Part shown: one piece after another, positions 2,202 through 61,648 of the stretch | Layout: the number at the start of each line of letters is the position of its first letter | How positions within the stretch are numbered: the stretch's first letter is position 1 | Origin: Candidatus Aminicenantes bacterium | Lineage (GTDB): Bacteria; Acidobacteriota; Aminicenantia; Aminicenantales; CAVYOD01 | Length of the DNA: 64,000 nt | Direction of reading: 5' to 3' | NCBI GenBank assembly: GCA_963701305.1 | Contig: OY969586.1 | Coordinates: 1,074,690 to 1,138,689, forward strand | Position numbers and translations under genes: made by a program | The notes under the pieces: model-generated | What the model was told of the DNA's origin: nothing | Seen by the model: only the letters and a program-made list of their open reading frames with translations | Database searches by the model: none

Positions 2202-2226
2202 CCCTTTCGCCTGCTTCTTTAAGGAG

Positions 2227-2242
2227 GGTTGCACCTGCAACC
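2227..2242. promoter_or_regulatory. Perfect 16-bp palindrome GGTTGCACCTGCAACC, ~26 bp upstream of the putA start. It contains inverted GTTGCA half-sites.
   Basis: Seen directly in the sequence. GTTGCA is the half-site recognised by enterobacterial PutA repressor domains, so this is a candidate operator. Confidence 0.35.
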
Positions 2243-2533
2243 ATTTAATAAAAATCTAGAGCGGCTCGAGAATTCCCATCAAGGCGCCGCTCTGAGAGAC
2301 CTTCCGACGACAAAGGTTGGGCTCGGCCCCCGCAAAGAAATTCGGCGAAAATAACTCCGTTTTCTCCGGTCGGCAATCATCCCAAAATTGAATCGGCGGG
2401 GCGGGAACCCGACTGCACAAATACCTGCGTTGGAGAAACCATAGGCGTTTGGGCCTGTGCTCCGCAGGCAAGCTCAAAAAGCAAGAGAAACGAAACTCGT
2501 TTTTTTTCTGGCTAATCGCTTAAATTGATGCCT

Positions 2534-2935
2534 TTATTCCGTCTCGACGATGCTCTCGACCTTGATGATGTCCTTTTCCTTCGTGCCCATGACCGTGATC
2601 ATCATGTTGTCGGTTTTCGTAGTTTTGTTGAGCAGATCTGCTGCCATCTTGTTCCCGGCCGCGTCGAATTTGAAGAATTCGTATTTGCCCATCGAGTCCT
2701 TCATGATGATCCCATAGCCGGAGCTCATACAGCCCGGCATCTTCAAGCAGGCGACGGTGTGTTTTTCGGGGTTCATTTTCATGTCCGTTCCATCACCGGC
2801 CTTTCCCGCCGTCCAGCAGGCAACATCAGACAGAATTCCCTTGAATTCCATAGTTTTTGCCTGCACAGGAAGGAGACTGCCGAGATAAAGCACGGCCAGA
2901 AAGACAAAAATGCCCACGATAAACTTTTTGTTCAT
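2534..2935 (-). CDS. Small secreted/lipoprotein-like hypothetical protein, 133 aa.
   Basis: ORF with an N-terminal signal peptide (MNKKFIVGIFVFLAVLYLGSLLPVQA) and several Cys. No recognisable family. Confidence 0.5.
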   Translation of the reverse strand: MNKKFIVGIFVFLAVLYLGSLLPVQAKTMEFKGILSDVACWTAGKAGDGTDMKMNPEKHTVACLKMPGCMSSGYGIIMKDSMGKYEFFKFDAAGNKMAADLLNKTTKTDNMMITVMGTKEKDIIKVESIVETE

Positions 2936-3049
2936 TTAGTACCTCTCTTAGGGTTATGTTAGCGCATCCCGGAGCGACTGTCAATTTCCTACGTACTTTA
3001 CCCGGGTTGAGGGAGAGGCCCGGGAGATCGGTATAAATGAAAAGAAGGT

Positions 3050-11192: not shown

Positions 11193-12563
11193 ATGAAAAC
11201 CTACGATGTCGTGGTTGTCGGATCGGGTTCGGGCGAGATTATTGTGGAGGAGGCCCTGGCTCACGGCCTGAAAGTAGCGCTGATCGACCGGGGGGCCCTC
11301 GGCGGAACCTGCCTGAATGTCGGCTGCATCCCTTCCAAGTTGCTCATCGTACCAGCGGACAGGATCGTCGACATCCAGGACTCCCGAAAGCTTGGGGTCC
11401 GGGCCGAAATCGAGAGGGTTGATTTCACGAGCATCATGGAGCGGACAAGGCGGTCGGTCCGATCATCCGAACATCTGATCAGCCAAAGGATCCGGAAAAT
11501 CAAAAACCTCGAATTCTACGGACAGAGGGCGAGGTTTGTGAACAAATCCACCTTCCGGGTTGGTGGCCAGGATATCAGCGGAGGAAATATCTTTCTCGCC
11601 TCGGGGGCGCGGCCCTCTATTCCTCCCGTCAAAGGGCTGAGAAAAATTCCCTACCTGACCAACGAAACGGTCTTTGCTCTGAACAGGAAACCCCGGAGCC
11701 TCATCATCATCGGCGGCGGCTACATCGCGGCCGAATTTGCCCATTTCTTCGCTGCCGTGGGGACCGCCGTCACGGTCCTCCAGAGGGACCACCGTTTGGT
11801 CAAAGAAGAAGAGCCGGAGATCTCCGCGCTTTTGAAGAAAAAACTGGGAGAGAGGATGAAGGTTCGCACGGGAATGGAAGCCGTTGAAGCCAGGACAGAG
11901 GGAAAGTTCGTCGTGATCTCCGCCCGCGATAGGGACTCCGGCCGGAAGCAAGTATTCAAGGCCGAAGAGGTGCTCGTCGCCGCCGGTCGAAAGTCCAATG
12001 CCGATCTGTTGGATGTCGAGAAGGCGGGCATCGAAACCGACGGGAAAAACTACATCAGGGTGAACGAATATCTGGAAACGAGCCAAAAAAACATCTGGGC
12101 CTACGGAGACGCCATCGGACAAAAGATGTTCCGGCACGCCGCCAACTATGAAGCCGAGCTAGCTTTTCACAACGCTATTCACGGCGGAAAAAACAAAATG
12201 GACTTCCTCCTCGTCCCTCATGCCGTTTTCACATCGCCCCAGATTGCCTCGGTCGGGATGACCGAAGCGGAGGCCCGGTTAAAGCACAAAATCCTAGTGG
12301 GAAAGGCCATGTATTCGACGACCGCCATGGGCGAAAGCCTGATGGACACGGACAGTTTTGCCAAGGCTATCGTGGAGAAAGAGACCCTGAAGATCCTGGG
12401 TTTTCACCTGATCGGCCCCCAAGCTTCCCTGCTCATCCAGGAGGTCGTCGATGCCATGTCCTCCGACGGCACCATCCTGCCCATCATCAGGGGGATCCAC
12501 ATCCATCCAGCGCTCGCGGAGATCGTCGTCCGGGCTCTTATCAATCTCAAAGAAAAAGATTAA
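11193..12563 (+). CDS. Class I pyridine-nucleotide disulfide oxidoreductase, dihydrolipoyl dehydrogenase-like.
   Basis: FAD fold (VVVVGSGSG), redox-active disulfide box (GGTCLNVGCIPSKLL) and C-terminal HIHPALAE (HxHPT..E) dimer-interface motif. Confidence 0.8.
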   Translation: MKTYDVVVVGSGSGEIIVEEALAHGLKVALIDRGALGGTCLNVGCIPSKLLIVPADRIVDIQDSRKLGVRAEIERVDFTSIMERTRRSVRSSEHLISQRIRKIKNLEFYGQRARFVNKSTFRVGGQDISGGNIFLASGARPSIPPVKGLRKIPYLTNETVFALNRKPRSLIIIGGGYIAAEFAHFFAAVGTAVTVLQRDHRLVKEEEPEISALLKKKLGERMKVRTGMEAVEARTEGKFVVISARDRDSGRKQVFKAEEVLVAAGRKSNADLLDVEKAGIETDGKNYIRVNEYLETSQKNIWAYGDAIGQKMFRHAANYEAELAFHNAIHGGKNKMDFLLVPHAVFTSPQIASVGMTEAEARLKHKILVGKAMYSTTAMGESLMDTDSFAKAIVEKETLKILGFHLIGPQASLLIQEVVDAMSSDGTILPIIRGIHIHPALAEIVVRALINLKEKD

Positions 12564-22737: not shown

Positions 22738-23134
22738 TAAATTCCGGGGGCTGATGCAATCGAACTTTTCTTGGAGAAAAGGGACTTTGGAAAGGGCTTT
22801 GCTCCCGAAGCTTCGGTCGGCGGCCTGAGAGCCCCGTCTTTCTCGGCTCTTCCGGGCCAAAGCGCCGAATCAACCACGCCCCAGGGAGATGGGGCCCCGC
22901 GACGGCGCTCCCCCACGCCTGCCCCCCCATCTCCAAACAAATTTGATCTAGAACGGGGGACGGGGGACGGGCCGACGATTTGTTTGGTCTGATCTCCGCC
23001 TCATGGTCGCCGCAGCCCTTCCCAGAATCCCTGCTCGACGATCACGAGATTGGATAAGGTCACATCTTTTGTCTGGCTCTTGTGAATTTTCTTAAAACGC
23101 ACTAAAATCTAATCTTCTATTTCTTAAACCGTCG

Positions 23135-24415
23135 ATGGAGGTTTATTTGAGCAAAGCCAATAATAATCACGAGCACGAGATCGAGATGCCGAGCCGCCGA
23201 GATTTTTTTAAGAAGTCAGGAGCGGCTCTCCTCTTCCTGAATTCCCCGTTCCGGCATCTCGCGGGCGACGATTTTGAGCCGTTTTCGACGGCCCAAACCC
23301 AGCCGCCATCGGCGGCTCCCGGCATCTTCATCATGGAAGGCCCGCCGGGACCCGAAACAATCATCAGCGGCAAGCGATATGTTTACTTTGGGGGAACGGG
23401 TTACTTTGCCCTCCAAGGCCATCCTGATGTGATCGAGGCCGGGATCGCAGCCTTCAGAAAGTACGGCGTTCACCCGGCCACCTCTCGGACCGGCTTTGGA
23501 AACTGCCCCATCCAGCTCGACCTGGAGCGGAAGATCGCCGAGTACTTCGGCACGGAAGATTCCCTCCATTTTGTCTCCGGCTACCTCGACAACCTCTTCC
23601 AGGTCCAGGCTCACAAAGAAGAGATCGATGTCGTCTTTATCGATGAGACGGCGCATTTCAGCATCAAGGACGCGGTCTATTCGGCGCTGAAGCCGGTCAT
23701 CATGTTTCGCCACCGCGATCCCGAGGACCTGAGCAAAAAACTCAAAGAGACGCTTAAGCCCGGGCAGGTCCCCCTCCTGATGACAGATGGCATTTTCCCG
23801 ACCATGGGCGTCATCGCCCCCGTGCCTGATTATCTAAAAATCATCGAGCCCTATAATGGCTTCATTTGCCTGGATGATTCTCACTCGGTCGGAGTGCTCG
23901 GCCCGAACGGCCGCGGCACCTACGATCACTTTGGCCTCAAGTCCGATCGCCTCTACTACGCGGGAACAATGAGCAAGGCTTTCGGCGGACACGGCGGCTT
24001 TATCCCGGGGACCAAGAAGTACATCCAGTACATCAAGGATCATTGCGGCGCTTTCGCCGGAGCCACCCCGAGCCCGACGGCGGCGATGGCCGCTTCGGCC
24101 AAAGGCTTGGAGATCGTCAAAAACCATCCCGAGATGAGGGATCGCCTGAGGAAGAACGTGGCCATGGTCAAATCCGGAATGAAGAAACTCGGCTTCGAGA
24201 TGAACGACAACCCGGTGCCGATCGTGACCTGGACGATGAAGTCCGGAGATGATATGAAGAAGATCCAGCTGGAATTGATGAGCCGGGGCGTGGCCGTGGC
24301 CTATACAAAATATGTCGGCGCGCCTCCCAGCGGGGCTTTGAGGGCTTCCATTTTCTCCGAGCACAAACCCGAGCACATCAGCAAGCTGCTTGAAGAAGTA
24401 GGCAAGCTCGCCTAG
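23135..24415 (+). CDS. Alpha-oxoamine synthase family PLP enzyme (8-amino-7-oxononanoate synthase / serine palmitoyltransferase-like), with an N-terminal Tat-type signal.
   Basis: DDSHSVGVLGPNGRG and GTMSKAFGGHGGF (the PLP-Lys box). The N-terminus MPSRRDFFKKSGAALLFL resembles a twin-arginine signal. Confidence 0.75.
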   Translation: MEVYLSKANNNHEHEIEMPSRRDFFKKSGAALLFLNSPFRHLAGDDFEPFSTAQTQPPSAAPGIFIMEGPPGPETIISGKRYVYFGGTGYFALQGHPDVIEAGIAAFRKYGVHPATSRTGFGNCPIQLDLERKIAEYFGTEDSLHFVSGYLDNLFQVQAHKEEIDVVFIDETAHFSIKDAVYSALKPVIMFRHRDPEDLSKKLKETLKPGQVPLLMTDGIFPTMGVIAPVPDYLKIIEPYNGFICLDDSHSVGVLGPNGRGTYDHFGLKSDRLYYAGTMSKAFGGHGGFIPGTKKYIQYIKDHCGAFAGATPSPTAAMAASAKGLEIVKNHPEMRDRLRKNVAMVKSGMKKLGFEMNDNPVPIVTWTMKSGDDMKKIQLELMSRGVAVAYTKYVGAPPSGALRASIFSEHKPEHISKLLEEVGKLA

Positions 24416-24513: not shown

Positions 24514-25947
24514 ATGAGGGTCTTCAGGTTTCTTTTTTTAAGCCTCTTCTTGATCGGGTCAACAACCGTTTTTGGTCCGCTGGCCTCAGGGATTAACGGG
24601 CCGTCCTCCTCGGCTGCTCTCGATACGAAGACGATTGATGCATTCGTGGCCGATCAGGTCAAAACCAAAGGGTTGGTTGGGCTCTCGGTAGCCATTCTAA
24701 AAGACGGCCGGCCCGAGCTTGTCAGGGGCTATGGAGTGAGTTCCCTAGCGAACAGGCAGTCCGTCACCGAGGACACGATGTTTGCGATCGGGTCCATCAC
24801 CAAACAGTTCACCTCGGCATGCGTCCTTCTCCTGGCCGAGGACGGCAAGCTCACCGTCGGCGATAAGGTGGCCAAGTACTATCCCAACCTGACGAGAGCG
24901 AATGACATCAGCCTCCTCGACCTGATGAACCATGTCTCGGGCTATCCTGACTATTATCCTCTCGACTTCGTCGACCGCCGGATGCAGAAACCGGCCACCG
25001 TTGATGAAGTCATCCGCCAATACGGCACGACCAACCTCGACTTCGAGCCGGGCACGAAATGGTCTTACTCCAACACCGGTTTCTTGATCCTCGGCCGGGT
25101 GGTCGAGAAGGTCAGCGGGGAGCCGTTCGGTCAGTTCTTGACACGTCGCATTCTGAAGCCCGTCGGCATGGACCACACCGCCTATGAGCCCGACACCAAG
25201 AAACCCGGCTTCGCGCAGGGGCACAGCTCATTTTTCCTCAGCCCGCCGGAAACGCCCGTTTCGGAGCAAAAGGGCTGGATCGCAGCCGCAGGGGCAAATT
25301 ATTCCACAGCTTCCGACCTGGCCAAGTGGGATCTTGCGTTGATCGAGGGAAAGGTCTTGAAGCCAGAATCGTACAAGCTCATGACCACCGCGCGCAAACT
25401 GGCCGATGGCCGACCGACGGGTTACGGCTGCGGCCTGTCGGTGGGCGAACGAAGCGGGATCACCGTGCTCTCGCACAATGGAGCCGTGGCGGGCTTCTAC
25501 GCGCTCAATACGATGATCCCCTCCTCCAAGTCAGCTGCCATCCTGTTATCAAATTTCGACGATTACAACGAAGTGAACACTGTCTACACGAAAATTGTCC
25601 GCTCCGTGCTGCCCCAGCCGTCGGACCCCAACCTTCCGAAGGTCGCCGGCCTGCCGGCGGCAGAGGAGGCCATGGCCTTCTTCCATCGGCTCCAGGCTGC
25701 CTCGGTGGACCGTTCGGAGCTGGGCGATGAGTACAGCTATTTCCTGACCGACGCCAAGATCAAAGCCGCCGCGGAGCATCTCAAGCCTTACGGCGAACCC
25801 ACGGCAGCGGATGTCGAGGGCTTGCACGAACGGGGCGGCATGGAGGTCTCCACGGTGCGTTTGACCTTCAAGTGCGGCATCCTCAAGGCATCGATGTACC
25901 GCTCACCCGACGGAAAGATCCAGCAGTACCTTATCCAAAAGGACTAA
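24514..25947 (+). CDS. Beta-lactamase-family serine hydrolase (class C / esterase EstB-like), secreted.
   Basis: Signal peptide. S-x-x-K active site (GSITKQFT). YSNTGF (Y-x-N) motif. Confidence 0.75.
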   Translation: MRVFRFLFLSLFLIGSTTVFGPLASGINGPSSSAALDTKTIDAFVADQVKTKGLVGLSVAILKDGRPELVRGYGVSSLANRQSVTEDTMFAIGSITKQFTSACVLLLAEDGKLTVGDKVAKYYPNLTRANDISLLDLMNHVSGYPDYYPLDFVDRRMQKPATVDEVIRQYGTTNLDFEPGTKWSYSNTGFLILGRVVEKVSGEPFGQFLTRRILKPVGMDHTAYEPDTKKPGFAQGHSSFFLSPPETPVSEQKGWIAAAGANYSTASDLAKWDLALIEGKVLKPESYKLMTTARKLADGRPTGYGCGLSVGERSGITVLSHNGAVAGFYALNTMIPSSKSAAILLSNFDDYNEVNTVYTKIVRSVLPQPSDPNLPKVAGLPAAEEAMAFFHRLQAASVDRSELGDEYSYFLTDAKIKAAAEHLKPYGEPTAADVEGLHERGGMEVSTVRLTFKCGILKASMYRSPDGKIQQYLIQKD

Positions 25948-25980
25948 TACAAACGCAATAACTCATGCGACATCTCCGTT

Positions 25981-26111
25981 CAATGTTGCGCCGGAGGCCA
26001 CCCTTGGGACCCCGTAGCAGAGGGGGGCCCGTCGGCTTATCCGACGGGGGAACCGTGGGGACTGGTTCCTCGGGGGCCGGGGGCCAGAGGGTGGCCTCCG
26101 GCGCAACATTG
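25981..26111. repeat. About 130-nt highly structured repeat element, copy 1. It has a 23-bp perfect outer inverted repeat and two internal hairpins.
   Basis: Outer arms CAATGTTGCGCCGGAGGCCACCC (25981..26003) and GGGTGGCCTCCGGCGCAACATTG (26089..26111). Inner hairpins CCCGTCGG-CTTAT-CCGACGGG and GGAACC-GTGGGGACT-GGTTCC. A near-identical core lies at 34051..34150. Confidence 0.6.
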
Positions 26112-26176
26112 GACATTTCAAGTTGCTTATCGCGTCTGCATTGGTCCGAGCCCTTCATTTGTTTTCGGAGGAACAC

Positions 26177-26971
26177 ATGACGAGAGTCTTAGAAGGAAAA
26201 ATCGCGATTGTGACGGGCGCCGGTTCGGCGGGGGAGGGTATCGGAAACGGCAAAGCCACAGCCATCGTTTTCGCTCGTGAAGGCGCCAAGGTCATGCTCG
26301 TCGATCAAAAGCTGGACGCCGCCGAAGAGACCCGAGGGATCATTGAAAAGGAAGGCGGTGTGAGTTTCGCCTTCAAGGCGGATGTGAGCCGCCCCGATGA
26401 TTGCCGGAAGATTGTTGACGCCTGTCTCCGGGCCTACGGTCGGGTCGATATCCTTCACAACAATGTCGGGATCGAACTCGCCGGCGGACTTGAAGAAACG
26501 ACCGAAAAGGACTGGGACCGGACCCTGGCGGTCAACCTGACGAGCATGTTCCTGTTGAGCAAGTATGCCGTGCCTCACATGCTGGCCCAAGGCGGAGGAG
26601 TCATCATCAACATTTCCTCGATCAATGCTATCAGGACCTTGCCCGCCTTGTCGCTCGCCTATGGCGTTTCTAAGGCGGGTGTCATCTCACTCACCCGCGA
26701 GATCGCGGTGCAGTATGCCGCAAAAGGGATACGGGTCAATGCGATCCTTCCGGGGATGATGAATACGCCTTTCGTCCGCGTCTCACTGACCAAGGCCTAC
26801 GGGGGAGATATCGAAAAAATGACCAGGTTCCGGGATTCCCTCTGCCCGACCGGAAAACAGGGGGAGCCCTGGGACGTCGCCAACCTGGCTCTCTTCCTGG
26901 CGTCAGACCAATCAAAATACATCACCGGCCAGGCCATCATCGTGGACGGCGCCCAGACCTGCAAAATTTGA
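26177..26971 (+). CDS. Short-chain dehydrogenase/reductase (SDR).
   Basis: TGAGSAGEGIG cofactor motif, NNVG, and Y-x-x-x-K (YGVSKAG). Start at ATG with GGAGGAACAC RBS. The ORF track begins at 26123. Confidence 0.8.
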   Translation: MTRVLEGKIAIVTGAGSAGEGIGNGKATAIVFAREGAKVMLVDQKLDAAEETRGIIEKEGGVSFAFKADVSRPDDCRKIVDACLRAYGRVDILHNNVGIELAGGLEETTEKDWDRTLAVNLTSMFLLSKYAVPHMLAQGGGVIINISSINAIRTLPALSLAYGVSKAGVISLTREIAVQYAAKGIRVNAILPGMMNTPFVRVSLTKAYGGDIEKMTRFRDSLCPTGKQGEPWDVANLALFLASDQSKYITGQAIIVDGAQTCKI

Positions 26972-27975
26972 TGATCATGGAAACCAGGCGCATTTTTTCA
27001 ACGATCGATACGCACACCGCGGGTGGGCCGACGCGGATCCTGACATCGGGAGTTCCTTTCCTCTCCGGAGCGACCGTTGCCGAGAAATTTGATCATTTCC
27101 AGGCCAATTTCGACCCCATCCGCAAATTGCTGCTGACCGAGCCTCGCGGCCATAAGGATATGTACGGGGCCGTCGTGACCGAAAGCCGACTCGACGACGC
27201 CGACCTCGGGGTTTTCTTCATGACCGCCGCCGGATATCTCCCGACTTGCGTGCACAGCGCCATGGGAGTCGCCGCGGCCATGCTTCAGACCGGCGCTCTA
27301 ACCCTCGAACCCCCCAAAGTCGAATTGGCCTTTGAGACCCCCAGCGGACTCATCTCCCTGGAACCCCATTTTCGGTCGGGCAAGATCCATTCGATCAGCC
27401 TGCAGACCAAGCCCGCCTACGTTCAAGAAATCGGAGCGACTCTCGGGGCGGGTGGGAAAGACCTGCGCGTCGACCTCGTGTTTTCCGGCGTTTTCTTCGT
27501 ACTGGTTGATGCGGGCACGAACGCGCTGGAAATAAGACCGAGAAATCTTCCGGATATCGTCGCCCTGGGACAGCAGGTTTTGGCCGAGGCTAATCGGCGT
27601 TTCGAAACTCGCCATCCAGAGCTTCCCCAGGTCAAAGGATTCGCGCTGGCCCTTTTTTACGAGCGAATCGACAAGAACCACTTCAAAGATGTCGTGATCG
27701 GCCGGACCGGCGGTGTCGACCGCTCTCCCTGCGGGGCAGGCTCGGGCGCGCTGGCCGTTCTCCAAGCCGTCGGGGGGGAAATCGCTTCAACTGAGGAAAT
27801 CGACATCGAGGGCGTCATCGGCACTCATTTCGCAGCTCGGTTGGTCAGACAGCTCAAAGTGGGCGCCTATTCCGGCGGGACACCACGGATCAGCGGCAGC
27901 GCCTACGTGACCGGATTCCATCAGTTCATCCTGGACGCGGACGACCCCCTCCAAGAAGGTTTCGTCCTGGGATAA
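26968..27975 (+). CDS. Proline racemase family enzyme (proline racemase / 4-hydroxyproline 2-epimerase-like).
   Basis: Both catalytic-Cys regions are present (LPTCVHS and the signature DRSPCGAGSGALAV). The start overlaps the SDR stop (ATGA). Confidence 0.75.
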   Translation: MMIMETRRIFSTIDTHTAGGPTRILTSGVPFLSGATVAEKFDHFQANFDPIRKLLLTEPRGHKDMYGAVVTESRLDDADLGVFFMTAAGYLPTCVHSAMGVAAAMLQTGALTLEPPKVELAFETPSGLISLEPHFRSGKIHSISLQTKPAYVQEIGATLGAGGKDLRVDLVFSGVFFVLVDAGTNALEIRPRNLPDIVALGQQVLAEANRRFETRHPELPQVKGFALALFYERIDKNHFKDVVIGRTGGVDRSPCGAGSGALAVLQAVGGEIASTEEIDIEGVIGTHFAARLVRQLKVGAYSGGTPRISGSAYVTGFHQFILDADDPLQEGFVLG

Positions 27976-28048
27976 AATCGTCTTTCCCCGCGAGTACGGA
28001 ATAAAACCTCGCCTGGTGTTGTATTATGTTTATCGAGGAGGACGAACG

Positions 28049-31000
28049 ATGATCAGCCAATCGCTACGGAATATTATTGCGGCGGTTTTGTTCGCCGCTC
28101 TGCTCATCACCGCGGGAAGCGTGGTCAAAGGCAGGCAGGCTGGGCCGATGCAAGAGAAAACGACGCAGGAGCTCTGGAAAAAGGTCGCAGAAGCTGAAAA
28201 GAGCGGGCTTCCGAAAACGGCCGCTGATTATCTCAAGCAGATCGCGGCGATGGCCCTCCGGCAAAAACGATATGGGGAATCACTCCGCGCCCTCACCAGG
28301 CAGATCATTCTGGAATCAGTCATCAAGGGGAACAAGCCGGAGGTTCGAGTCGCCCGGCTGCAGGAGGAAATGGAGAAAGCGCCGGCGGAAATGAAGCCCA
28401 TGATGAAGCTCATCCAAGCCCAGTGGTATTGGCATTACTATTCGCGAAATAAATGGAGGTTCATGAACCGCACCGCGACAGAGGGGTTCGATGAAAAGGA
28501 CTTCACCACCTGGGACCTGCCCAAGCTGTTCCGGGCGATCGACTTCCTCTACCGAGAGATCCTGAAAGATGAAGCGGATCTCAAGAAGGAGGCGCTCTCC
28601 TCTTGGAAAAACCTTCTGATCGAAGGGAATCGGCCTCCAGCGCTTCGCCCGACCGTTTTCGATTTCGCAGTCTTCGAAGCCCTGGACTTTTACACCTCGG
28701 GAGAGCAATCCGCACTCCCGGAAGACGCATTTTTCATCCAGGCTGATTCCGACGCCCTCGCCCCGGCCGGCCAGTTTCTCAAATACGTGCCGGAGACGAC
28801 CGATCTGGATTCCCCCAAGCTCCAGGCCCTTAGGCTTTTCCAAAAGGTGATGTCTTTTCACCTCGAAGACGGAAACAGGGACGTCTTTCTGGATGCGGAC
28901 CTCCAGCGCCTGGGTTTCGTCAAAAACGTAGCCGCGGGTGAGGGTGCCTCCGACCGGTACCTGGCACGGCTGAAAGAGATTGCTGAGGCCTCCCCCTCCT
29001 CCGAGCTTTCGAGCTTGGCTCTGTACCACATGGCCCAGGAATTGTACGATCGAGAACAACCGGTCGAGGCGTACGCACTCGCCGACCGCGCTCAGAAATC
29101 GCATCCCTCTTCTCTGGGCGCCTCCAACAGCAGGGCTCTGTTGGCTAGGATTACGGCCAAGGAATTTGAGCTGCGCTGCGAAGCCGTTCTCCGGCCCGGC
29201 TCTCCGGGGAAGCTGGGGCTCGAATATCGAAATATCTCCTCCCTTCATCTCCGGGTCATCCAAGACGATATCTCGGCGCTCCTGGCCAGAAAAGACGGAG
29301 AGAGTCTTCTCTGGCCTTCGAATGAATTCGTCCGGGGACTTGTCCGACGAGCTCCGGCCGCCCGTTGGACCGCGAGCCTCAAACCCACTCCAGACTATAA
29401 AAAGAAAACCGCCTTCCTTGAAATTCCTCCTTTAAAGCCCGGATTCTACTGGATCTTCGCCAGCTTCCGGGAAAGCTTTTCCTGGGAGGAGAACAAGGTC
29501 CAGGTGGCCTCATTCTGGGTCAGCGACCTGGGTCTGGTCACGCGAGGCGTGGCCGGCGGCCTGCAGGGATACGTTGTCCGCAACCAAGCAGGGACACCCG
29601 TGGAATCCGCCGAGGTCACACTCTATAATTGGAATTACAACAGCTCGGCCTTCCAAAAAGTGGGCAGTGCACGGACCGACAACCTGGGTTCTTTTTCCCT
29701 GAGCCTGCCCGATTCCTACTCCAATCGTATCGTCCTCGTCCGGGAGGCGCAGGGGGCCGAGCTCGCCGAGGTCGAGGTGCCCTCCCCATCCTCCCGAACC
29801 GAAAACCCAACCGCGATCTGTGTATTCTTCACCGACAGGTCGATGTATCGTCCCGGACAGATGATCTTCTTCAAAGGCATTTGCCTCAGTGTGGACAAAG
29901 CGCAAAACGATTACAGGCTCCTGCCGAAGCAAAGAGCAAGAGTCGCTTTCCGCGATGTGAACCATCAGGAGATCGCCAATCTCGACCTGGTCAGCAACGA
30001 GTTCGGCTCATTGAGCGGAACTTTTATCGCCCCCGCGGACCGATTGACCGGTCAGATGACGATCTCGACTGAATCGCCCCGTGGCTCTTGTTCAGTCAGG
30101 GTCGAGGAATACAAGCGTCCCAAGTTCGAGGTGAAGCTAAACGTCCCAGCGCAAGAATTCAGGCTGAACGATCAGATTGCCCTCCCCGGCGAGGCCATGG
30201 CCTACACGGGCGCGCCGGTGGACGGCGCGTTGGTTAAGTATCGGGTCGTCCGTGAAGTCCAGTACCCCTGGTGGTGGTTCTACTGGTCCGGTTGGTCGGC
30301 GAGAAGCCAGAGCCAGGAAATTGCCCACGGTATCATGAGAACCGACGAAACGGGTAAGTTCAGCGTTGGCTTCCAGGCCAAGCCGGATCCTTCAGTTCCG
30401 GCTTCCAGCGGCCCGACTTTCCAATACAAGGCGTACGTGGATGTCACCGACAGTGCCGGCGAAACACGCAGTGCGCAAGGCGGCGTGCGGTTGGGATATG
30501 CCTCGCTCGAGGCGGGCATGGGCTGCCGGGATTGGCAGGAGACGGGAAAGCCGGTCATCCTATCCGTCACGACCACGACGCTGAATTATAAGAAAGTGGC
30601 GGCGAGGGGAACGATCGAGGTGTTCAACCTGAACGGGCCGGAAAAGCCGGTGCCCGCAGATTTGATCGGCGAGGTGGCTTTCCGTGAACAGGAAGTGTCG
30701 AGAGGGAAGACGTTTCAAGGGCTCAGCGACACGGCCGATTGGAAGAAGTGGCCCGAAGGCCGGATGGCCGCCACAAAAGAATTTATCACTTCCGAAAAAG
30801 ACGATGTCCCGTGCACTCTTCCGTTCGACCTCAAGAAAGGCGCCTACAAGGCGAAGCTCAAGACTCAAGATAAATACGGTACGGCTGTCGAGAGCTATCT
30901 TTATTTCATCGTCCTCGATCCTGCCGAAAATAAGTTCCCACTCAAGATCCCCTTCTTCAACTCGTCGAAGGGCTCAACCGCCGAAGTGGGCCAGACGTAT

Positions 31001-34000
31001 GAAACACTTTGGGGGACGGGACATGAAAAAGGTCCGGTTCTGGTCGAGGTCTTCCAGAACAACGCCTGGCGGCAACGGTCTTGGATGCCACCTCAACAAA
31101 CCCAAGGCGTCCTCCGGGTGGCCGTGGATGAAAGCCTGAGGGGCGGCTTTACGGTCGCCATCTCTATGGTCAAAGAAAACCGATTTTATCGAAGCGAACA
31201 ACGCGTCAATGTTCCCTGGTCAAACAAAGTCCTCGACCTCCGCTGGCTGACCTTCCGTTCCAAGCTCAGACCGGGACAAGCGGAGACCTGGTCGGTGCAG
31301 ATCAAAGGCCCTCAGATGGCGCTCAGAGCCGCCGAGATGGTGGCCACGTTGTACGACGCATCCCTCGATCAATTCTATCGTCACGGCTTTCCGGGGATGA
31401 TCGGAGTCTTCCGGACGGATTGGACCTACGTGGCCTCGAATTTTGCGAACAGACGGCACGACCTCCAGACTTTCGTTGATCTTCTGAACTCATACCCGAG
31501 TTTCATATCGATCATCTACGTCCACTTTCCGCCCGACATCGAAGAGGATGCTTACGGATACGCCTACCCGCGCGCAGCCAGGGAACAATTGGCAGCGAGC
31601 CCTGCGGCCGCCGAAAAAAACAAGGATTTGGAAGGAAAAGTTCTCGGCGGAGTGGTCGGGGGCGTCTTGGGCGGTGTTGTCGGGGAAGCGGAAGCCAAAA
31701 AGGCCGCGGAAATAGACCTCACCAGTGTGCAGGCTCGGAAAAACCTGAACGAAACGGCCTTTTTCTATCCCCATCTTCTGACCGACAAAAAGGGCGTCGT
31801 AACTCTGGAGTTCAAGATACCCGAAGCGCTCACCCAGTGGCGCTTCCTCGGGTTCGCCCACACCAAAGACCTGGAAAGCGGATCTCTAGAGGCGACCGCC
31901 GTCACCCAGAAAGAGCTGATGGTCCAACCCAACCCGCCTCGGTTTCTGCGGGAGGGAGACAACCTCGAGTTCACTGTCAAGGTGACCAACATGGCCGAAA
32001 AAGAGGCCGAGGGCGCGGTCGAGCTCGCCTTTTTTGACCCGAGAACCGAGAAGCCGCTTGATGCCGCGCTGGGCAATCGCACAAAAAAGCTTGCTTTTAC
32101 GATTCCGGCCAAACAATCGCGGTCATTTTCCTGGCCGGTGGCCGTGCCAGACGGCCTGGATCTCGTGAGCTATAAAGCCGTCGCAGCCACGCCCGGCTTT
32201 TCAGACGGCGAAGAGGGCGTGCTTCCCATTCTGAGCCGCCGGCTTCTCGTCCGCGAATCCGTCCCCCTCTGGATCAGCGACCAGGGCGAAAAGAAATTCA
32301 CTTTCGAAAAGCTGGTGGCGTCCGCCGGATCCAAGACCCTCCGGAACATCGGGCTGGTCGTCCAGATGGCTTCCAACCCGGCTTGGTACGCCGTCCAGGC
32401 CCTCCCCTTCCTCATGGAATTTCCTTATGAGTGTTCCGAGCAAGTTTTCAACCGGCTTTACGCTAACAGCCTGGCTCAAAAGATAGCCAACTCCAACCCC
32501 AAAATCCGGAGAATTTTCGACCTCTGGAAAGGGACCGAGGCGCTCAAATCCAACCTCGAAAAGAACGAGGACTTGAAAAGTGTCCTTCTCCAGGAAACTC
32601 CCTGGGTGCTTGAATCCAAGGCCGAGACCCAAGCCAAGCACAACATCGGCCTCCTCTTCGATGAAAACCGGATGGGCCTCGAGATCAAGCAGGCCCTCGG
32701 GAAACTCGCCAACATGCAGCTCTCCGACGGCTCCTGGCCCTGGTTCCCCGGCGGCCGCGGGAACAGCTACATCACGCTCTACATTCTGACCGGGTTCGGC
32801 AGGCTGAAACATCTGGAGGTCTCCTCTGTCTCCCAGGCAACAGCCGAAAAAGCACTCGGCCACCTGGACGGCTGGATTCGGGAGATTTACGAGGACATCA
32901 TGCGCTCCGGAAACCAGGACCAAAACCACCTCAGCCCGGTCGCGGCGCTGTACCTTTACGGCCGGAGTTTTTATCTGACCACAAGGCCGATTCCCGAGGC
33001 CAGCCGAAAGGCCGTCGATTACTTCCTCAAACAAGGGGAAAGGTATTGGCTGCAACTCGACTGCCGCATGAGCCAGGCGCATTTGGCTCTCGCCCTGAAG
33101 AGATTTGGGGACGAGCCGACCGCTCAAAAAATCATGCATTCCATGAAAGAGCGCAGCCAGCTGGACCAAGAAATGGGCCGGTTCTGGAGCGAGCTCGAGT
33201 ATTCCTGGTGGTGGTATCGCGCCCCGATCGAAACTCAGTCGGTCATGATCGAGGCGTTCGACGAGATTATGAACGACCAGAAGGCGGTTGAGGAATGCAG
33301 GGTTTGGCTCCTTAAGCAAAAACAGACCCAGGATTGGAAGACGACCAAGGCCACGGCCGACGCCGTGTACGGCCTCGTCCTGAGGGGAACGGATCTTCTA
33401 GCCTCTGACAGTATTGTCGAGGTCAGCCTGGCAGGCAAAAATATCGAGCCGGAGAAAGTCGAGCCCGGCACGGGATTCTATGAGAAAAGGTTCGAACCGG
33501 GAGTGATCGTGCCCGCCATGGGAAACATCCTGGTGAAGAAAGCTGACAAGGGCATCGCCTGGGGCGGCGTCCACTGGCAATACATGGAGGATGTTTCCAA
33601 GATCACACCGCACAGCCAGAACCCGCTCCGGCTGAAAAAATCCGTTTTCGCCCAGAGGCTGACCAAGAAAGGCCCGGTCATCGAACCCGCGCAGGCGCCT
33701 CTTCATGTCGGCGACACGCTGATCATCCGCATTGAGCTGCGCACGGACAGAGACATGGAGTACATTCACCTGAAAGATCACCGCGGCAGCGGCCTTGAAC
33801 CGGTTAATGTGCTTTCCCAATATAAATATCAGGGGGGACTCCTCTATTATGAATCGACCAAGGACACGGCCACCCATTTCTTCATCGACTATCTGCCCAA
33901 GGGGACCTATGTCTTCGAATATCCGCTCCGGGTTGTCCACCGCGGCGCTTATCAGAACGGCCTGGCTCATATCGAGTGCATGTATGCTCCGGAATTCAAC

Positions 34001-34036
34001 AGCCACTCTGAGAGCCTGGAGCTGGAGGTCAAGTAG
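28049..34036 (+). CDS. Bacterial alpha-2-macroglobulin family protein (about 1995 aa; MG domains plus thioester-type domain).
   Basis: Size, signal peptide, MG-domain motifs (PGQMIFFKGI) and a thioester-like box FPYECSEQ (CSEQ at 32432..32443, versus CLEQ/CGEQ consensus). Start set at ATG with GAGGAGG RBS. The ORF track begins at 28016. Confidence 0.8.
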   Translation: MISQSLRNIIAAVLFAALLITAGSVVKGRQAGPMQEKTTQELWKKVAEAEKSGLPKTAADYLKQIAAMALRQKRYGESLRALTRQIILESVIKGNKPEVRVARLQEEMEKAPAEMKPMMKLIQAQWYWHYYSRNKWRFMNRTATEGFDEKDFTTWDLPKLFRAIDFLYREILKDEADLKKEALSSWKNLLIEGNRPPALRPTVFDFAVFEALDFYTSGEQSALPEDAFFIQADSDALAPAGQFLKYVPETTDLDSPKLQALRLFQKVMSFHLEDGNRDVFLDADLQRLGFVKNVAAGEGASDRYLARLKEIAEASPSSELSSLALYHMAQELYDREQPVEAYALADRAQKSHPSSLGASNSRALLARITAKEFELRCEAVLRPGSPGKLGLEYRNISSLHLRVIQDDISALLARKDGESLLWPSNEFVRGLVRRAPAARWTASLKPTPDYKKKTAFLEIPPLKPGFYWIFASFRESFSWEENKVQVASFWVSDLGLVTRGVAGGLQGYVVRNQAGTPVESAEVTLYNWNYNSSAFQKVGSARTDNLGSFSLSLPDSYSNRIVLVREAQGAELAEVEVPSPSSRTENPTAICVFFTDRSMYRPGQMIFFKGICLSVDKAQNDYRLLPKQRARVAFRDVNHQEIANLDLVSNEFGSLSGTFIAPADRLTGQMTISTESPRGSCSVRVEEYKRPKFEVKLNVPAQEFRLNDQIALPGEAMAYTGAPVDGALVKYRVVREVQYPWWWFYWSGWSARSQSQEIAHGIMRTDETGKFSVGFQAKPDPSVPASSGPTFQYKAYVDVTDSAGETRSAQGGVRLGYASLEAGMGCRDWQETGKPVILSVTTTTLNYKKVAARGTIEVFNLNGPEKPVPADLIGEVAFREQEVSRGKTFQGLSDTADWKKWPEGRMAATKEFITSEKDDVPCTLPFDLKKGAYKAKLKTQDKYGTAVESYLYFIVLDPAENKFPLKIPFFNSSKGSTAEVGQTYETLWGTGHEKGPVLVEVFQNNAWRQRSWMPPQQTQGVLRVAVDESLRGGFTVAISMVKENRFYRSEQRVNVPWSNKVLDLRWLTFRSKLRPGQAETWSVQIKGPQMALRAAEMVATLYDASLDQFYRHGFPGMIGVFRTDWTYVASNFANRRHDLQTFVDLLNSYPSFISIIYVHFPPDIEEDAYGYAYPRAAREQLAASPAAAEKNKDLEGKVLGGVVGGVLGGVVGEAEAKKAAEIDLTSVQARKNLNETAFFYPHLLTDKKGVVTLEFKIPEALTQWRFLGFAHTKDLESGSLEATAVTQKELMVQPNPPRFLREGDNLEFTVKVTNMAEKEAEGAVELAFFDPRTEKPLDAALGNRTKKLAFTIPAKQSRSFSWPVAVPDGLDLVSYKAVAATPGFSDGEEGVLPILSRRLLVRESVPLWISDQGEKKFTFEKLVASAGSKTLRNIGLVVQMASNPAWYAVQALPFLMEFPYECSEQVFNRLYANSLAQKIANSNPKIRRIFDLWKGTEALKSNLEKNEDLKSVLLQETPWVLESKAETQAKHNIGLLFDENRMGLEIKQALGKLANMQLSDGSWPWFPGGRGNSYITLYILTGFGRLKHLEVSSVSQATAEKALGHLDGWIREIYEDIMRSGNQDQNHLSPVAALYLYGRSFYLTTRPIPEASRKAVDYFLKQGERYWLQLDCRMSQAHLALALKRFGDEPTAQKIMHSMKERSQLDQEMGRFWSELEYSWWWYRAPIETQSVMIEAFDEIMNDQKAVEECRVWLLKQKQTQDWKTTKATADAVYGLVLRGTDLLASDSIVEVSLAGKNIEPEKVEPGTGFYEKRFEPGVIVPAMGNILVKKADKGIAWGGVHWQYMEDVSKITPHSQNPLRLKKSVFAQRLTKKGPVIEPAQAPLHVGDTLIIRIELRTDRDMEYIHLKDHRGSGLEPVNVLSQYKYQGGLLYYESTKDTATHFFIDYLPKGTYVFEYPLRVVHRGAYQNGLAHIECMYAPEFNSHSESLELEVK

Positions 34037-34050
34037 GGGCGGATCGAACA

Positions 34051-34150
34051 TCCCTTCAATGATCAGCCTGTCGGTTTGTCCGACGGGGGAACCGAGGGGA
34101 CTGTTTCCTGGGGGTGCGGGGGCAAAGGGGTGGCCTCCGGCGCAAACTTG
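34051..34150. repeat. Structured repeat element, copy 2. The left outer arm is degenerate.
   Basis: CCTGTCGGTTTGTCCGACGGGGGAACCGAGGGGACTGTTTCC...GGGGTGGCCTCCGGCGCAAACTTG. More than 85% identical to the core of the 25981..26111 element. Confidence 0.55.
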
Positions 34151-34184
34151 AACTGAGATGTCGCAGGTGGTTATTTAGCTGGTA

Positions 34185-35210
34185 TTAGCTGCTTTTTTTG
34201 TTCTTCGCCAAAAAATAATCGTAGGCGGACCGGGCGATAACTCCCATTTTGTGTTTGATTTCGTAGTGGATCTCTTTGAGGTCGTTCCCCCAGAGGCAGA
34301 TGATGAGGTGGCCGGCCTTTTCTGGGAGCCAGATCACCGCTGAATCAAGCAAGGCCGTGTTATCGCCGGACTTGACTAAACTGCCTCCCTTCCGGGCGAT
34401 CTCGGTGAGGTAGGGAAGATAACGCAGGATCAGCTCGGCTCCGGTGTGATTCTTCATCGTCTCAAGAATCTGATCGCTTGTCGTCCGGTCCACGATCTCT
34501 CCCTTCACGCATTTCTCCAGGAGCAAACTGATCTCTAAAGGAGTCGACGTGTTGTGCAGGGAAGATTCAAAGGCCTTCTGCTTGTCAAGGCATTCTCTGC
34601 TCGTCCAATAGGATTCAGGAACTTGCGCCAGCTCGGCGATGGTCAGGCGTTTCGAAGGGTCTAGCCCGAGAAAAGCCAAGATGACCTGGCGGGTGTCATA
34701 ATCGATCGTTGTGTTTTTCAATCCGAGCTCGCTCATGTAATCCGAAATCGCTTGCGCAGTGACCAGCTGAAATAGGATATCGGTGGCCGTATTGTCGGAT
34801 CGCGCCATCATCAGGAGCTGCAGGTCCTGGACGGAGATATTGAGACCGGGTTTCATGGAAACCATGAGCCCGCCGCCGTACGTCTTCATCCGCTCTTCAA
34901 AGTTGATCCGGTCGTCGAGAGATATCTTGCCGAGATGAATTTGCCTGTAAAGCGTGAGCAGGACGGGAATCTTAAAAACGCTGGCCAGCTGGAAGCGGCG
35001 GTTCTCATTGAACCCTAGGGATTCGCCCGATTGGACGTGTTTGATATAGACGCCCATCGTTCCTTGGATCTTATCGATCTGGTCCTTGACCACCTGTTCC
35101 AGCTCGGCTTTGGTCTTTGGAGCCTTGAACTGAAAATCCTGGGGCGAGGCAATAACCAGCCCCCCGCAAAAGCCTACTAAAACGAAAAAAATAATCAATC
35201 TTTCGGACAT
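34185..35210 (-). CDS. Class A beta-lactamase-like serine hydrolase, secreted.
   Basis: Signal peptide. S-x-x-K (ASVFK). SDN loop (RSDNTATD). Confidence 0.65.
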   Translation of the reverse strand: MSERLIIFFVLVGFCGGLVIASPQDFQFKAPKTKAELEQVVKDQIDKIQGTMGVYIKHVQSGESLGFNENRRFQLASVFKIPVLLTLYRQIHLGKISLDDRINFEERMKTYGGGLMVSMKPGLNISVQDLQLLMMARSDNTATDILFQLVTAQAISDYMSELGLKNTTIDYDTRQVILAFLGLDPSKRLTIAELAQVPESYWTSRECLDKQKAFESSLHNTSTPLEISLLLEKCVKGEIVDRTTSDQILETMKNHTGAELILRYLPYLTEIARKGGSLVKSGDNTALLDSAVIWLPEKAGHLIICLWGNDLKEIHYEIKHKMGVIARSAYDYFLAKNKKSS

Positions 35211-35234: not shown

Positions 35235-35350
35235 CCGGGGACGTTTCCCACGCCGACAGCCTCGAATCTTCAAGCACGGTTCTCATGGCAGCCAAACTGG
35301 AAACCTAATGAATGGAAACCAAAGAGTGTCCCCCTGGGGAACGTCCCTCA
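35235..35350. repeat. MITE-like inverted-repeat element, copy A (arms GGGGACGTTTCCCACG ... GTGTCCCCCTGGGGAACGTCCCTCAG).
   Basis: Terminal inverted repeats related to the copies at 52387..52504 and 61617..61737. The spacer is ~70 bp. Confidence 0.5.
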
Positions 35351-35428
35351 GTTTTTGATATTATATTTTGGGTGCTGGGACTTGACAACACAAAAAATAT
35401 CCTATAAAAGGTGGACGAGGGGGAGGTT

Positions 35429-50939: not shown

Positions 50940-52325
50940 ATGTCGAAAATCAGAACCAGAATGGGAGATGCGTCTGTTGTCGAGGTCACCGAGGGCCGGC
51001 TCCGGGCCGACTTAGAGGAGGGAACGAAAGATGCGGCTCAACGGGGGAAAATTCCGCCGTTGTCGCAGGATGAGCTGAACCATCTGTATGATATCTACAG
51101 CGCGCCTTCAAGAGTGGTCGGCGTGGAGCCGGGCAACGAGGTCGTCTTCACCTATGACTCCACGGTGGGCGAAATCCAGCGCACCCTTATCCCTGTGAAC
51201 AGAATCCAGTCACTGCAGATGTTCGAGCGGATGTTGGGCGCGGACACAGTCGAACTGGCTCATAATGATTACAGCTTCAAAGCCGTAAAGCCCATCATCA
51301 GCGATGAACGCACCGCCCTGGAGCAAGCCCTTTTGGTGACGACGGTGCCCGTGCTCTACGGCGCCATGCCTAACCTCGGGCTCTATAATAAGCCCGAAGG
51401 CCCAGTTCCGAATTCCTCAAAACTGATGTCCGAAGGAAAAATCAAGGAAGCCAGAGCGTCCATGGAAGAGGCCATCGAATTTGCGATCCGGGATATGGTC
51501 TATGTGGCCAGCGAACTTTACGAATCCGGCGTCGACGCGATCGATTTTGACACCACGGGCTCGGCCGGTGATCCCGATTTTTTGGCCACGCTGAAAGCCG
51601 TCGAAATCCTGAAGAAAAAGTATCCTGATATCTGCGTCGAAATGGGAATGTCCGGAGAGTTTATCCTGGGAATGCACGGCGGACTGACTTATGACGGGAC
51701 CAGGTTGGCCGGGCTCTACCCGCACCAGCAGGTGAAGCTGGCCGAGAAAGCGGGCGTCACAATCTTCGGCCCGGTCGTCAACACGAACACGAGCAAAACC
51801 TGCGCCTGGAACGCGGCCCGAGTCATCACCTTCCTGAAGACCTGTGTAGAACAATCCAACATTCCCGTGCACGCGAATATGGGGATGGGTGTGGGCGGAC
51901 TTCCTGTGACCCCCTTCGTGCCTATTGACGCGGTTTCGAGGGCATCGAAGGCCGTTGTCGAGTTGACGAGACTGGACGGGTTGTAGGTGGGCGTAGGCGA
52001 TGTTCTCGGCATGGCCGCGACTCATGCGATCGCTTCGGGCATGGGCGGGATGCGCACTGCCGGAGATCTGGTGGCGCGCATGCAAATGTCCCGGGGCCTG
52101 AGAATCCGACAAGCCAAAGAGTACGTGGCCGGCAAACTGAAAATTAGCCCCATCGATCTGGCCGATCCGTTGATCATGTCAGAAATCAGAGAGGACTTGA
52201 AGCTGGGCCTGATCAATCCTCCTCCCAACTACGCGGTTGGGATCGAGGCCAAGTTCCATGTCGCCGCGCTTTTGGGAATCGAAATCCGGAGCCTCAAACG
52301 CTTCAAGGAAAAGGCGGGCCTTTGA
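50940..52325 (+). CDS. mtbB: Dimethylamine:corrinoid methyltransferase MtbB. A single in-frame UAG is read as pyrrolysine (codon 349). The ORF track splits it at 51986.
   Basis: Both halves are collinear with archaeal MtbB: RMGDAS..., GAMPNLGLYNKPEGP, VVNTNTSKTCAWNAARVITFLK, ...[17 protein letters not shown][TAG][51 protein letters not shown] (MtbB reads ...[53 protein letters not shown]...). Both ORFs are in the same frame. RBS AAGGAGGTG. Confidence 0.85.
51984..51986 (+). other. In-frame amber (UAG) codon predicted to encode pyrrolysine in mtbB.
   Basis: A TAG in frame joins ORFs 50940..51986 and 51987..52325 exactly at the conserved Pyl position of MtbB homologs. Confidence 0.8.
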
Positions 52326-52386: not shown

Positions 52387-52504
52387 GGGGACGTTCCCCA
52401 AGGGGACACCCTTGGGGAACGTGAGTCTTGGATGAAATTCCGCATTGCTGTATAGTTTTGCTCGAAGGCCGAAGGGTGTCCCCGTGGGGAACGTCCCTCA
52501 GTTT
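52387..52504. repeat. MITE-like inverted-repeat element, copy B. The left arm alone forms a perfect 14-bp hairpin.
   Basis: Left GGGGACGTTCCCCAAGGGGACACCCTTGGGGAACGTGAG at 52387..52425. Right GGGTGTCCCCGTGGGGAACGTCCCTCAGTTT at 52474..52504. Related copies at 35235 and 61617. Confidence 0.55.
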
Positions 52505-60869: not shown

Positions 60870-61648
60870 GGGGGAAGAAAACGAAGCAGGTCCTGGTCAT
60901 GGCTATCTTATCTTCGACCATCGCATTGGTGGTTTCGGCCGAGAAGCAATGGCAGGTCCACGATCCTAGCAGGCCCCTCCCCCCGGTCGTTAATCCAGGT
61001 CCCGCCGGCCCTTCGATCCAGCCGCCGTCAGATGCCGCCATCCTCTTCGACGGCCGGGATCTTTCCCAGTGGACGGACGCCAAAGGCCATCCGGCAAAAT
61101 GGAAGGTTGAGAACGGTTATGCGGAGGTCGTGGACAAAACGGGGAGCATCCGCACGATCAAAGGATTCGGAGACTGTCAGCTCCATGTCGAATGGAGGGC
61201 GCCTCTCCCGGCCATCGGCGAAGGACAGGATAGAGGCAACAGTGGCGTTTTTTTGATGGACACTTACGAGATCCAGGTTCTGGATTGTCACAACAATAAG
61301 ACCTATGCCGATGGAATGGCGGCAGCCGTCTATGGCCAATATCCGCCCCTGGTGAATGCCTGCCGGCCGCCCGGAGAATGGCAGACCTATGATATCGTGT
61401 TCCACCGGCCACGTTTTGACCAGGAAGGGAAACTCCTGAAGCCTGCCCGGATGACCGTCTTCCACAATTGCGTTCTGGTTCAGGACGATGTTGCACTCAC
61501 CGGGCCGACGGCCCACAAAGCCCGGCCGCCTTACAAAGCCCATCCTGACAAGATGCCGCTTTCCCTTCAGGATCACGGCCACCCCGTCCGCTACCGGAAC
61601 ATCTGGATTCGTGAGCTGGGGGACGTTCCCCAAGGGGACACCCTTTAG
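60866..61648 (+). CDS. DUF1080 (3-keto-disaccharide hydrolase, LamG-like) domain protein, secreted.
   Basis: Signal peptide. ILFDGRDLSQWTD, HVEWR, GNSGVFLM and C-terminal YRNIWIREL are typical DUF1080 features. The start overlaps the upstream gene's stop (ATGA). Confidence 0.7.
   Translation: MRGKKTKQVLVMAILSSTIALVVSAEKQWQVHDPSRPLPPVVNPGPAGPSIQPPSDAAILFDGRDLSQWTDAKGHPAKWKVENGYAEVVDKTGSIRTIKGFGDCQLHVEWRAPLPAIGEGQDRGNSGVFLMDTYEIQVLDCHNNKTYADGMAAAVYGQYPPLVNACRPPGEWQTYDIVFHRPRFDQEGKLLKPARMTVFHNCVLVQDDVALTGPTAHKARPPYKAHPDKMPLSLQDHGHPVRYRNIWIRELGDVPQGDTL

Follow-up and report, generated by a model that had tools for sequence, protein, structure and literature searches.

The Correia repeat-enclosed elements of Neisseria are non-coding repeats of 100 to 155 bp with inverted-repeat ends that duplicate a TA, lie near genes, are co-transcribed and form long hairpin RNA. 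They carry an integration host factor (IHF) site and promoter-like ends, and to our knowledge no parent insertion sequence (IS) has been identified for them. The plant Stowaway elements are transposable elements of the miniature inverted-repeat type (MITEs) derived from Tc1/mariner transposons. They also duplicate a TA, have a high hairpin potential and are mobilised in trans by transposases that share little with them beyond the terminal repeats. Repeats of the ERIC/IRU, RUP and BOX types are imperfect palindromes of 100 to 200 nt that occur in transcribed intergenic regions in either orientation, and for most of them we know of no established transposase or target duplication. Here we describe a 201-bp repeat that is present in one complete copy (copy 1) and one truncated copy (copy 2) in a 64,000-nt stretch of contig OY969586.1 (assembly GCA_963701305.1) from a Candidatus Aminicenantes bacterium. 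This stretch is called the window, and all coordinates without a further label are positions in it. Judged from its sequence, the repeat is very probably a MITE, a non-autonomous derivative of an insertion sequence of the IS630/Tc1-mariner family. This reading rests on its terminal inverted repeats, the TA duplication, an empty orthologous site, the dispersed copies and the existence of IS630-family parent elements with the same ends, and these five features bear out a second MITE family, which was one of the options offered by a first-pass annotation of the window.

The repeat shares the TA duplication and terminal inverted repeats of about 30 bp with IS630, ISY100 and their bacterial MITE derivatives and, as does IS630, it prefers CTAG. 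Its parent elements of about 1.1 kb encode a transposase with helix-turn-helix (HTH) and DDE_3 domains that matches the model NF033545, as expected for the IS630 family. It differs from IS630 and ISY100 in that the host belongs to the Aminicenantes (Acidobacteriota), that the parent transposase is divided over two open reading frames (ORFs) with a conserved +1 offset, and that the MITE shares only its ends with the parent. With the Correia elements it has in common that it is small and non-coding, with inverted-repeat ends, a TA duplication and a position close to genes. However, its sequence is unrelated, it is 201 bp long with a GC-rich core, its parent family has been identified, and a scan of the window copies found no promoter-like sites. 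It resembles Stowaway in the TA duplication, in sharing only terminal repeats with the parent and in its hairpin potential, whereas Stowaway is eukaryotic, has no CTAG preference and is unrelated in sequence. In contrast to the ERIC/IRU, RUP and BOX-type repeats, both a transposase family and a target duplication are documented for the 201-bp element. Literature searches returned general references on IS630 and MITEs and nothing on this 201-bp element, and its termini and cargo (the palindromic segment between the termini) had no match among the curated elements that could be searched. For the annotation, this means that a candidate regulatory RNA in the window is replaced by a mobile element of an ordinary bacterial kind, of which a conserved and flippable core is the only part that may go beyond the ordinary.

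The element and its copies

A species-representative genome collection was scanned with a 17-mer from the inner arm of the repeat, which occurs three times in the window where 0.37 occurrences are expected. The scan returned at least 110 loci, mostly single chance matches, and among the matches listed the real copies, at no fewer than nine loci, were all in the metagenome-assembled genome (MAG) Candidatus Aminicenantes MFD04408.bin.2.57 (CAVYOD01). These copies are 87 to 94% identical, lie on both strands and come in addition to the two copies in the window. The boundaries of the element were set by aligning 11 copies together with their flanks and by searching for terminal repeats. Metagenomes were scanned with the 18-nt terminus, which gave at least 120 loci (L115 to L234), and about 30 copies bearing the core were collected from 0.9 Mb of metagenome loci; this metagenome sampling is small and was seeded by the termini. 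Copy 1 is organised as follows.

25944 to 26144, + strand: copy 1 of the MITE including target bases, with C at 25944, the TA duplication at 25945-25946, the element proper (195 nt) at 25947-26141, the second TA at 26142-26143 (now TG) and G at 26144
25944 to 25977, + strand: left terminal inverted repeat and subterminal region, the 'A' end, CTAATACAAACGCAATAACTCATGCGACATCTCC, which agrees exactly over its first 18 nt with the left terminus of the 1.1-kb IS630-family elements
25981 to 26003, + strand: left arm of a perfect 23-bp inner inverted repeat, which is the outer stem of the palindromic cargo and shows compensatory changes among copies
26004 to 26088, + strand: asymmetric G-rich core with CCCC/GGGG at 26010-26025, a hairpin CCCGTCGG/CCGACGGG at 26028-26048 and a hairpin GGAACC/GGTTCC at 26049-26069, nearly invariant in three subfamilies
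26089 to 26111, + strand: right arm of the 23-bp inner inverted repeat, pairing with 25981-26003
26112 to 26144, + strand: right terminal inverted repeat, the 'B' end, reverse complement CCAATGCAGACGCGATAAGCAACTTGAAATGTC, with 2 mismatches to the consensus terminus

The perfect 23-bp inverted repeat and the two inner hairpins had been recognised in the first-pass annotation and are indeed there. Its extent of about 130 nt was too short: the true element runs over 201 bp, and the terminal repeats of about 35 nt on each side had been missed. Similarity among the copies continues for about 35 nt past the palindrome on each side and stops sharply at CTAAT...ATTAG. Terminal inverted repeats of about 30 bp (CTAATRCAAACGCRATAA / TTATYGCGTTTGYATTAG) are found in all full copies, and 189 of 212 element ends begin with CTAAT. 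The ends are of two types, A (CTAATACAAACGCAATAAC...GCGACATCTCCGTTCAAGG) and B (CTAATGCAAACGCGATAAG.AACTTGACATGGTCAAGG), which are imperfect inverted repeats of each other. Inside them, a repeat search extended the inner arms, with mismatches, to 37 nt at 89% complementarity. The element is non-coding; the only ORFs that cross copy 1 are spurious (71 and 81 aa), and it has no capacity to encode a transposase. The approximately 30 core-bearing copies adjoin unrelated genes on both strands.

Besides full copies there are decay products of the kinds typical of palindromic MITEs: a form of 172 nt, a nested insertion, and core-less forms with lengths of 115 and 93 nt. The core-less mini forms, which keep one stem arm, arose independently in two subfamilies (115 nt at L086 1530-1644 and L114 16398-16512; 93 nt at L148 3871-3963, L166 1303-1395 and L205 2177-2268). 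Their breakpoints lie at short direct repeats, which in the 115-nt forms read CCGGRGGCC, and this indicates recurrent excision of the palindrome. At another locus, L063, a minus-strand open frame of 600 codons (ORF 2163-3965) enters the MITE copy at 2141-2341 for about 180 nt and stops inside it, and the element may here supply the last 59 or so codons and the stop of a gene.

Insertion at CTAG and the history of the two copies

Metagenome contigs carry syntenic relatives of the hydrolase gene that precedes copy 1, with 88% (L114 and L112) and 77% (L113) amino acid identity. The order aminotransferase, hydrolase, short-chain dehydrogenase/reductase (SDR), proline racemase, alpha-2-macroglobulin (A2M) and beta-lactamase2 is common to the window and these relatives. 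The gap between the hydrolase and SDR genes is 32 nt in L114 and L112 versus 230 nt in the window. The 195-nt element is missing from all three relatives, which show one (C/T)TAG in place of the TA...T(A>G) of the window. The empty junction reads AAAAGGATTAGTCTGA in L114 and L112 (in L114 split as AAAAGGA-T-TA-G-TCTGA) and AAAGACTAGCCG in L113 (AAAGA-C-TA-G-CCG), and the filled junction of the window reads AAAAGGAC-TA-[195 nt]-TG-GTCCGA (AAAAGGA-C-TA-[195 nt]-TG-G-TCCGA). On these alignments, the empty site points to a TA duplication within (C/T)TAG, followed later by a single substitution in the right-hand TA, and copy 1 appears to be a lineage-specific insertion that is absent from the relative with 88% identity. 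The features around the two copies are as follows.

24514 to 25947, + strand: beta-lactamase-family serine hydrolase gene (PF00144), whose TAG stop lay in the copy 1 target; the insertion made it TAA (25945-25947)
28016 to 34036, + strand: alpha-2-macroglobulin gene, ending 30 nt before the truncation point of copy 2, with an intact C-terminus compared with the orthologue; a neighbour and not a target
34066 to 34188, + strand: copy 2, a remnant without left end; of the core, a portion with both hairpins (34067-34087, 34088-34108) remains, followed by the right stem arm at 34128-34150 and the 'A' end at 34151-34188
34185 to 35210, - strand: gene for a class A beta-lactamase-like protein (PF13354), whose TAA stop (TTA at 34185-34187) lies inside the terminal CTAAT of copy 2

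The last base of the hydrolase TAA stop is the first base of the element proper in copy 1, and the stop of the convergent PF13354 gene was originally a TAG in the target of copy 2 and is now also TAA. CTAAT is preceded by A at 141 of 215 ends, which makes the preferred target approximately ACTAGT. The window is strongly depleted in CTAG (37 sites observed): base composition predicts 243 and a Markov estimate 61, and ACTAGT is absent. In 22 of 190 cases (11.6%), the TAA of an element end serves as the stop of an open frame with a length of 100 codons or more. Targeting of stop codons as such was considered and rejected, as unoccupied CTAG sites coincide with stops nearly as often, a TAG serving as such a stop in 77 of 860 site-strands (9.0%). 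The choice of target together with the loss of insertions inside genes accounts for the position at gene ends. Because the CTAG target contains TAG, copies come to adjoin gene ends, and no link with exported proteins is needed. The first-pass annotation had placed both copies just 3' of genes for exported proteins. The hydrolase and the A2M (orthologues of which carry MG2, A2M and bMG10 domains) are the neighbours that it named, but copy 2 abuts the convergent minus-strand gene at 34185-35210 and not the A2M gene.

Copy 2 had been taken to end at 34150 with more than 85% identity to copy 1. Its inner hairpins and right arm are kept, but it runs on to 34188 and the identity is 84%, ungapped over 88 nt (34066-34153). 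A covariance model of the core matches it with 49.5 bits (E 2e-7), and because one arm was lost it folds unremarkably on its own (z = -1.2). In L114, too, an element lies in the intergenic region between the A2M and PF13354 genes, and its right junction is the same (GTATTAG followed by CTGC). This orthologous element is the 115-nt form, with its B end intact and the core deleted, like L086 in the MAG. As the right junction is shared, the insertion of copy 2 would be older than the split of the two genomes, each of which then lost a different part. At the break in copy 2, the native GCCYGTCG downstream of the A2M gene meets GCCCGTCG of the core hairpin. The simplest account is that the left half was probably lost by deletion between 8-nt GCCYGTCG direct repeats. 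Both insertions in the window can in this way be dated relative to the sister genome.

A further, degenerate copy lies between the BNR/sortilin-like and aminotransferase genes in L112 (1118-1290) and L114 (5324-5458). The L114 copy is also without its B end, unlike that in L112. The corresponding part of the window (about 22900-23135) has no copy, and the upstream DNA is not alignable, so that no clean empty site can be defined there.

Full-length relatives and modular cargo

When termini were paired in the metagenome loci, many short elements of 60 to 250 nt were found, together with seven pairs spaced 1106 to 1111 bp apart; an eighth full-length copy was found by tblastn.

Full-length 1.1-kb IS630-family elements: L171 875-1985, L118 728-1836, L120 23-1133, L150 241-1346, L156 288-1393, L210 132-1242 and L227 201-1311, and L221 with ORFs at 3112-4144

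These elements encode a 182-aa ORF with HTH_32/33/29 domains and a 156-aa ORF with a DDE_3 domain (Pfam, E = 4e-19). Against the NCBIfam IS630 transposase model NF033545 the two ORFs score 85.5 bits (model positions 3-137) and 96.2 bits (160-294). Each is below the 100-bit cutoff of the model, because the transposase gene is split. Even copies with no more than 57 to 92% identity keep the layout of two ORFs and its +1 offset, which suggests programmed frameshifting (or transcriptional slippage) rather than decay. The ends of the 1.1-kb elements, CTAATACAAACGCAATAAATAATTTGACA and CTAATACAAACGCATTAAGTAATTTTACATA, match the A and B ends of the MITE over about 30 nt and no further, with the first 18 nt shared exactly and the rest approximately, and all of these elements are flanked by C-TA...TA-G. 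Members of the IS630 family are known to choose TA as target and to duplicate these 2 bp, and IS630 itself has a preference for CTAG (PMC2170065; Tenzen & Ohtsubo 1991, cited there).

The same 18-nt termini bound dozens of other short elements (73 to 366 nt) with unrelated and mostly palindromic cargos, such as CCCCCCACCCTCCCCTCCCCC/GGGGGAGGG... hairpins. Examples are found at L133 1908-2013, L152 8094-8232, L158 2786-2912 and L229 8101-8466, and L229 has a nested insertion inside the core. Shared termini with varied cargo make this a MITE 'superfamily' in which the cargo is modular. In scans of viral contigs the core had no matches and the terminal repeat had 11. Taken together, these are the parts of an active-looking IS630/MITE system with interchangeable hairpin cargos, present in Aminicenantes and in freshwater and sediment metagenomes, in a lineage that has been little annotated for mobile elements.

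Mobile element or functional structure

The steps by which the copies would have arisen can be outlined from these data. The termini of about 30 bp (CTAATRCAAACGCRATAA...) would be bound in trans by an IS630-family transposase supplied by a 1.1-kb relative. The element would then be cut and pasted into the TA of (A)CTAG(T) with duplication of the TA, a step for which the empty site and the flank statistics provide the evidence. As CTAG is rare and contains TAG, viable sites would often be stop codons, and a TAG would be turned into TAA by using the first A of the element. The cargo would be a GC-rich palindrome between the termini, with a stem of 23 to 37 bp and a G-rich core of about 85 nt, that is not derived from the IS. 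Any effect on neighbouring genes, for example through a very stable hairpin in the 3' untranslated region (3'-UTR), would be a putative by-product. Several observations weigh against a simple MITE. The right TA of copy 1 reads TG, so that its duplication is deduced from the consensus of the other copies and from the empty site. Neither the window nor the nine MAG loci (72 kb) yielded a transposase gene bounded by these termini. The full-length ISs are known from short, unassigned metagenome contigs, and a parent in the same genome is putative. Only about 30 nt at each end resemble the IS, whose sequence does not account for the cargo. The core is also more conserved between subfamilies (about 90%) than the stems are, and the stem arms show compensatory changes, neither of which is predicted by neutral MITE decay.

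It could be argued that the repeat is instead a dedicated structured RNA, such as a 3'-UTR stabiliser, a processing site, a small RNA (sRNA) or a factor-independent terminator, selected for its effect on the upstream genes for exported proteins. The first-pass annotation had offered a 3'-UTR element, an sRNA or a terminator, and none of these fared well, as there is no Rfam match, no terminator and no consistency in strand or context. The stability of the fold is extreme, with z of about -8 (copy 1 as RNA, -107 kcal/mol, z = -8.0, 0 of 200 shuffles as good; as DNA, -63 kcal/mol, z = -8.1), and both window copies are directly 3' of genes. However, a search of the repeat against Rfam 15 gave no family at threshold and matches at chance level, the best being MIR1846 (E = 0.21). 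A match to the hepatitis delta virus (HDV) ribozyme, with 15 bits and E = 7.8, was set aside as noise. A terminator scan of 25700-26400 and 33800-34500 found no hairpin followed by a T-run at either copy, and a tRNA scan found none. Transcripts would read into the core-bearing copies 11 times in the sense and 11 times in the antisense direction of the core. Some copies lie downstream of a gene and many others upstream of one or between a divergent pair, and the genes next to them show no relationship between one copy and another. The orthologue of the hydrolase gene manages without the element. Covariation, which had been proposed as a check, gave a divided answer. In the 26-bp outer stem of the window's subfamily, four pairs (six cells) were changed on both sides versus 0.9 (1.0) in shuffles, and three subfamilies have a perfect stem of different sequence. 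The three inner helices never vary and so carry no information on covariation. The structure is maintained, but this is accounted for equally well by selection on RNA and by conversion of one arm by the other in a DNA palindrome. On balance, we consider a dedicated RNA very unlikely, and a secondary effect of the hairpin on flanking transcripts is possible.

The core is the part of the element that is harder to account for. Over about 75 nt it has a mean column identity of 92% among 17 sequences from three subfamilies, while the enclosing stems and the subterminal regions differ. The stems of the subfamilies are distinguished by compensating substitutions and paired indels (GCGCCGGAGGCCACCC / GGGTGGCCTCCGGCGC; GGCGGCGCTTAGGCCGCCC / GGGCGGCCTAAGCGCCGCC; AGAGGCGTTGGCATCGCCC / GGGCGATGCCAACGCCTCT), and the third form has no recognisable IS630 ends. 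At L184 (about 11296-11373) and L198 (about 3101-3177) the core sits in a different perfect stem without recognisable IS630 termini. The core could be an independent functional module of about 75 nt that was captured by or spread through several MITE backbones. It might act as a DNA site to which a protein binds, or as a structured element, of RNA or DNA, with a benefit for transposon or host, and it fits such a view that the same termini carry many other cargos. Within a subfamily, however, diversity is roughly uniform (0.077 in the terminal repeats, 0.044 and 0.086 in the stems and 0.056 in the core), so purifying selection on the core is not seen at this level and the inserted copies look neutral. 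In addition, there is no strand bias, known RNA families and tRNAs gave no match, the core was absent from the viral contigs, and the sampling was small and seeded by termini. The conservation could also reflect recent recombination among master copies. As an explanation of the repeat as a whole, an independent module seems to us still less probable than a dedicated RNA.

With respect to the A and B ends, the core is oriented A-core-B' in four copies (copy 1, labelled w1, and L011, L027 and L218) and B-core-A' in 12, including copy 2. Both orientations occur in one MAG, with one fixed orientation at each locus of an assembly. All seven copies of the second subfamily are arranged alike, in the form that corresponds to B-core-A'. 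As both orientations are seen, the core seems to have flipped between the perfect stem arms at least once. A covariance model of the core (R1) recovered only copies already found by BLAST. A further proposal is that the nearly invariant G-rich core of 75 to 80 nt (CCCGTAGCGGAGGGGGG-CCCGTCGGCTTKTCCGACGGGGG-GAACCGACGGGACTGGTTCC-YCGGGGYCCGGGGGC) is a functional structured nucleic-acid module riding on IS630-type MITEs. We regard this as unlikely, though worth stating. It would fit with the perfect stem being kept while its sequence drifts by compensating changes, with the survival of the core on backbones that have no recognisable IS630 ends, and with the ability of the core to flip between the arms, by which either strand may be presented to neighbouring transcription. 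If it were true, the core could be a new ribozyme-like or protein-recruiting element, or an invertible switch carried by MITEs, in Aminicenantes and related uncultured bacteria.

An intergenic, GC-rich palindrome that occurs in many copies also brings to mind repetitive extragenic palindromes (REP/REPIN type) or other palindromic repeats that are spread by recombination or by an IS200/IS605-like REP-associated tyrosine transposase (RAYT) rather than by a DDE transposase. IS630-family elements have the very same conserved termini, and neither the TA duplication nor the empty site at CTAG is a feature of REPINs. No sign of a RAYT was seen, although no search aimed at one was made. This is by far the least probable of the explanations and is scarcely credible.

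The window also contains another repeat family of about 120 nt, with inverted-repeat arms GGGGACGTTCCCCAAGGGGACACCCTT, at 35237-35354, 52387-52504 and 61616-61736. It is presumably the other MITE family alluded to in the first-pass annotation. At 51984-52083 on the + strand the Rfam model PYLIS_2, which describes the mtbB pyrrolysine insertion sequence, matches at gathering level (64.4 bits, E = 3e-13), and UAG is probably read as pyrrolysine in a dimethylamine methyltransferase of this organism. It is a curiosity that one genome has both a pyrrolysine insertion element and MITE insertions by which TAG stops have become TAA. One copy of the GGGGACGTTCCCCAAGGGGACACCCTT family is situated 300 nt downstream of the PYLIS match.

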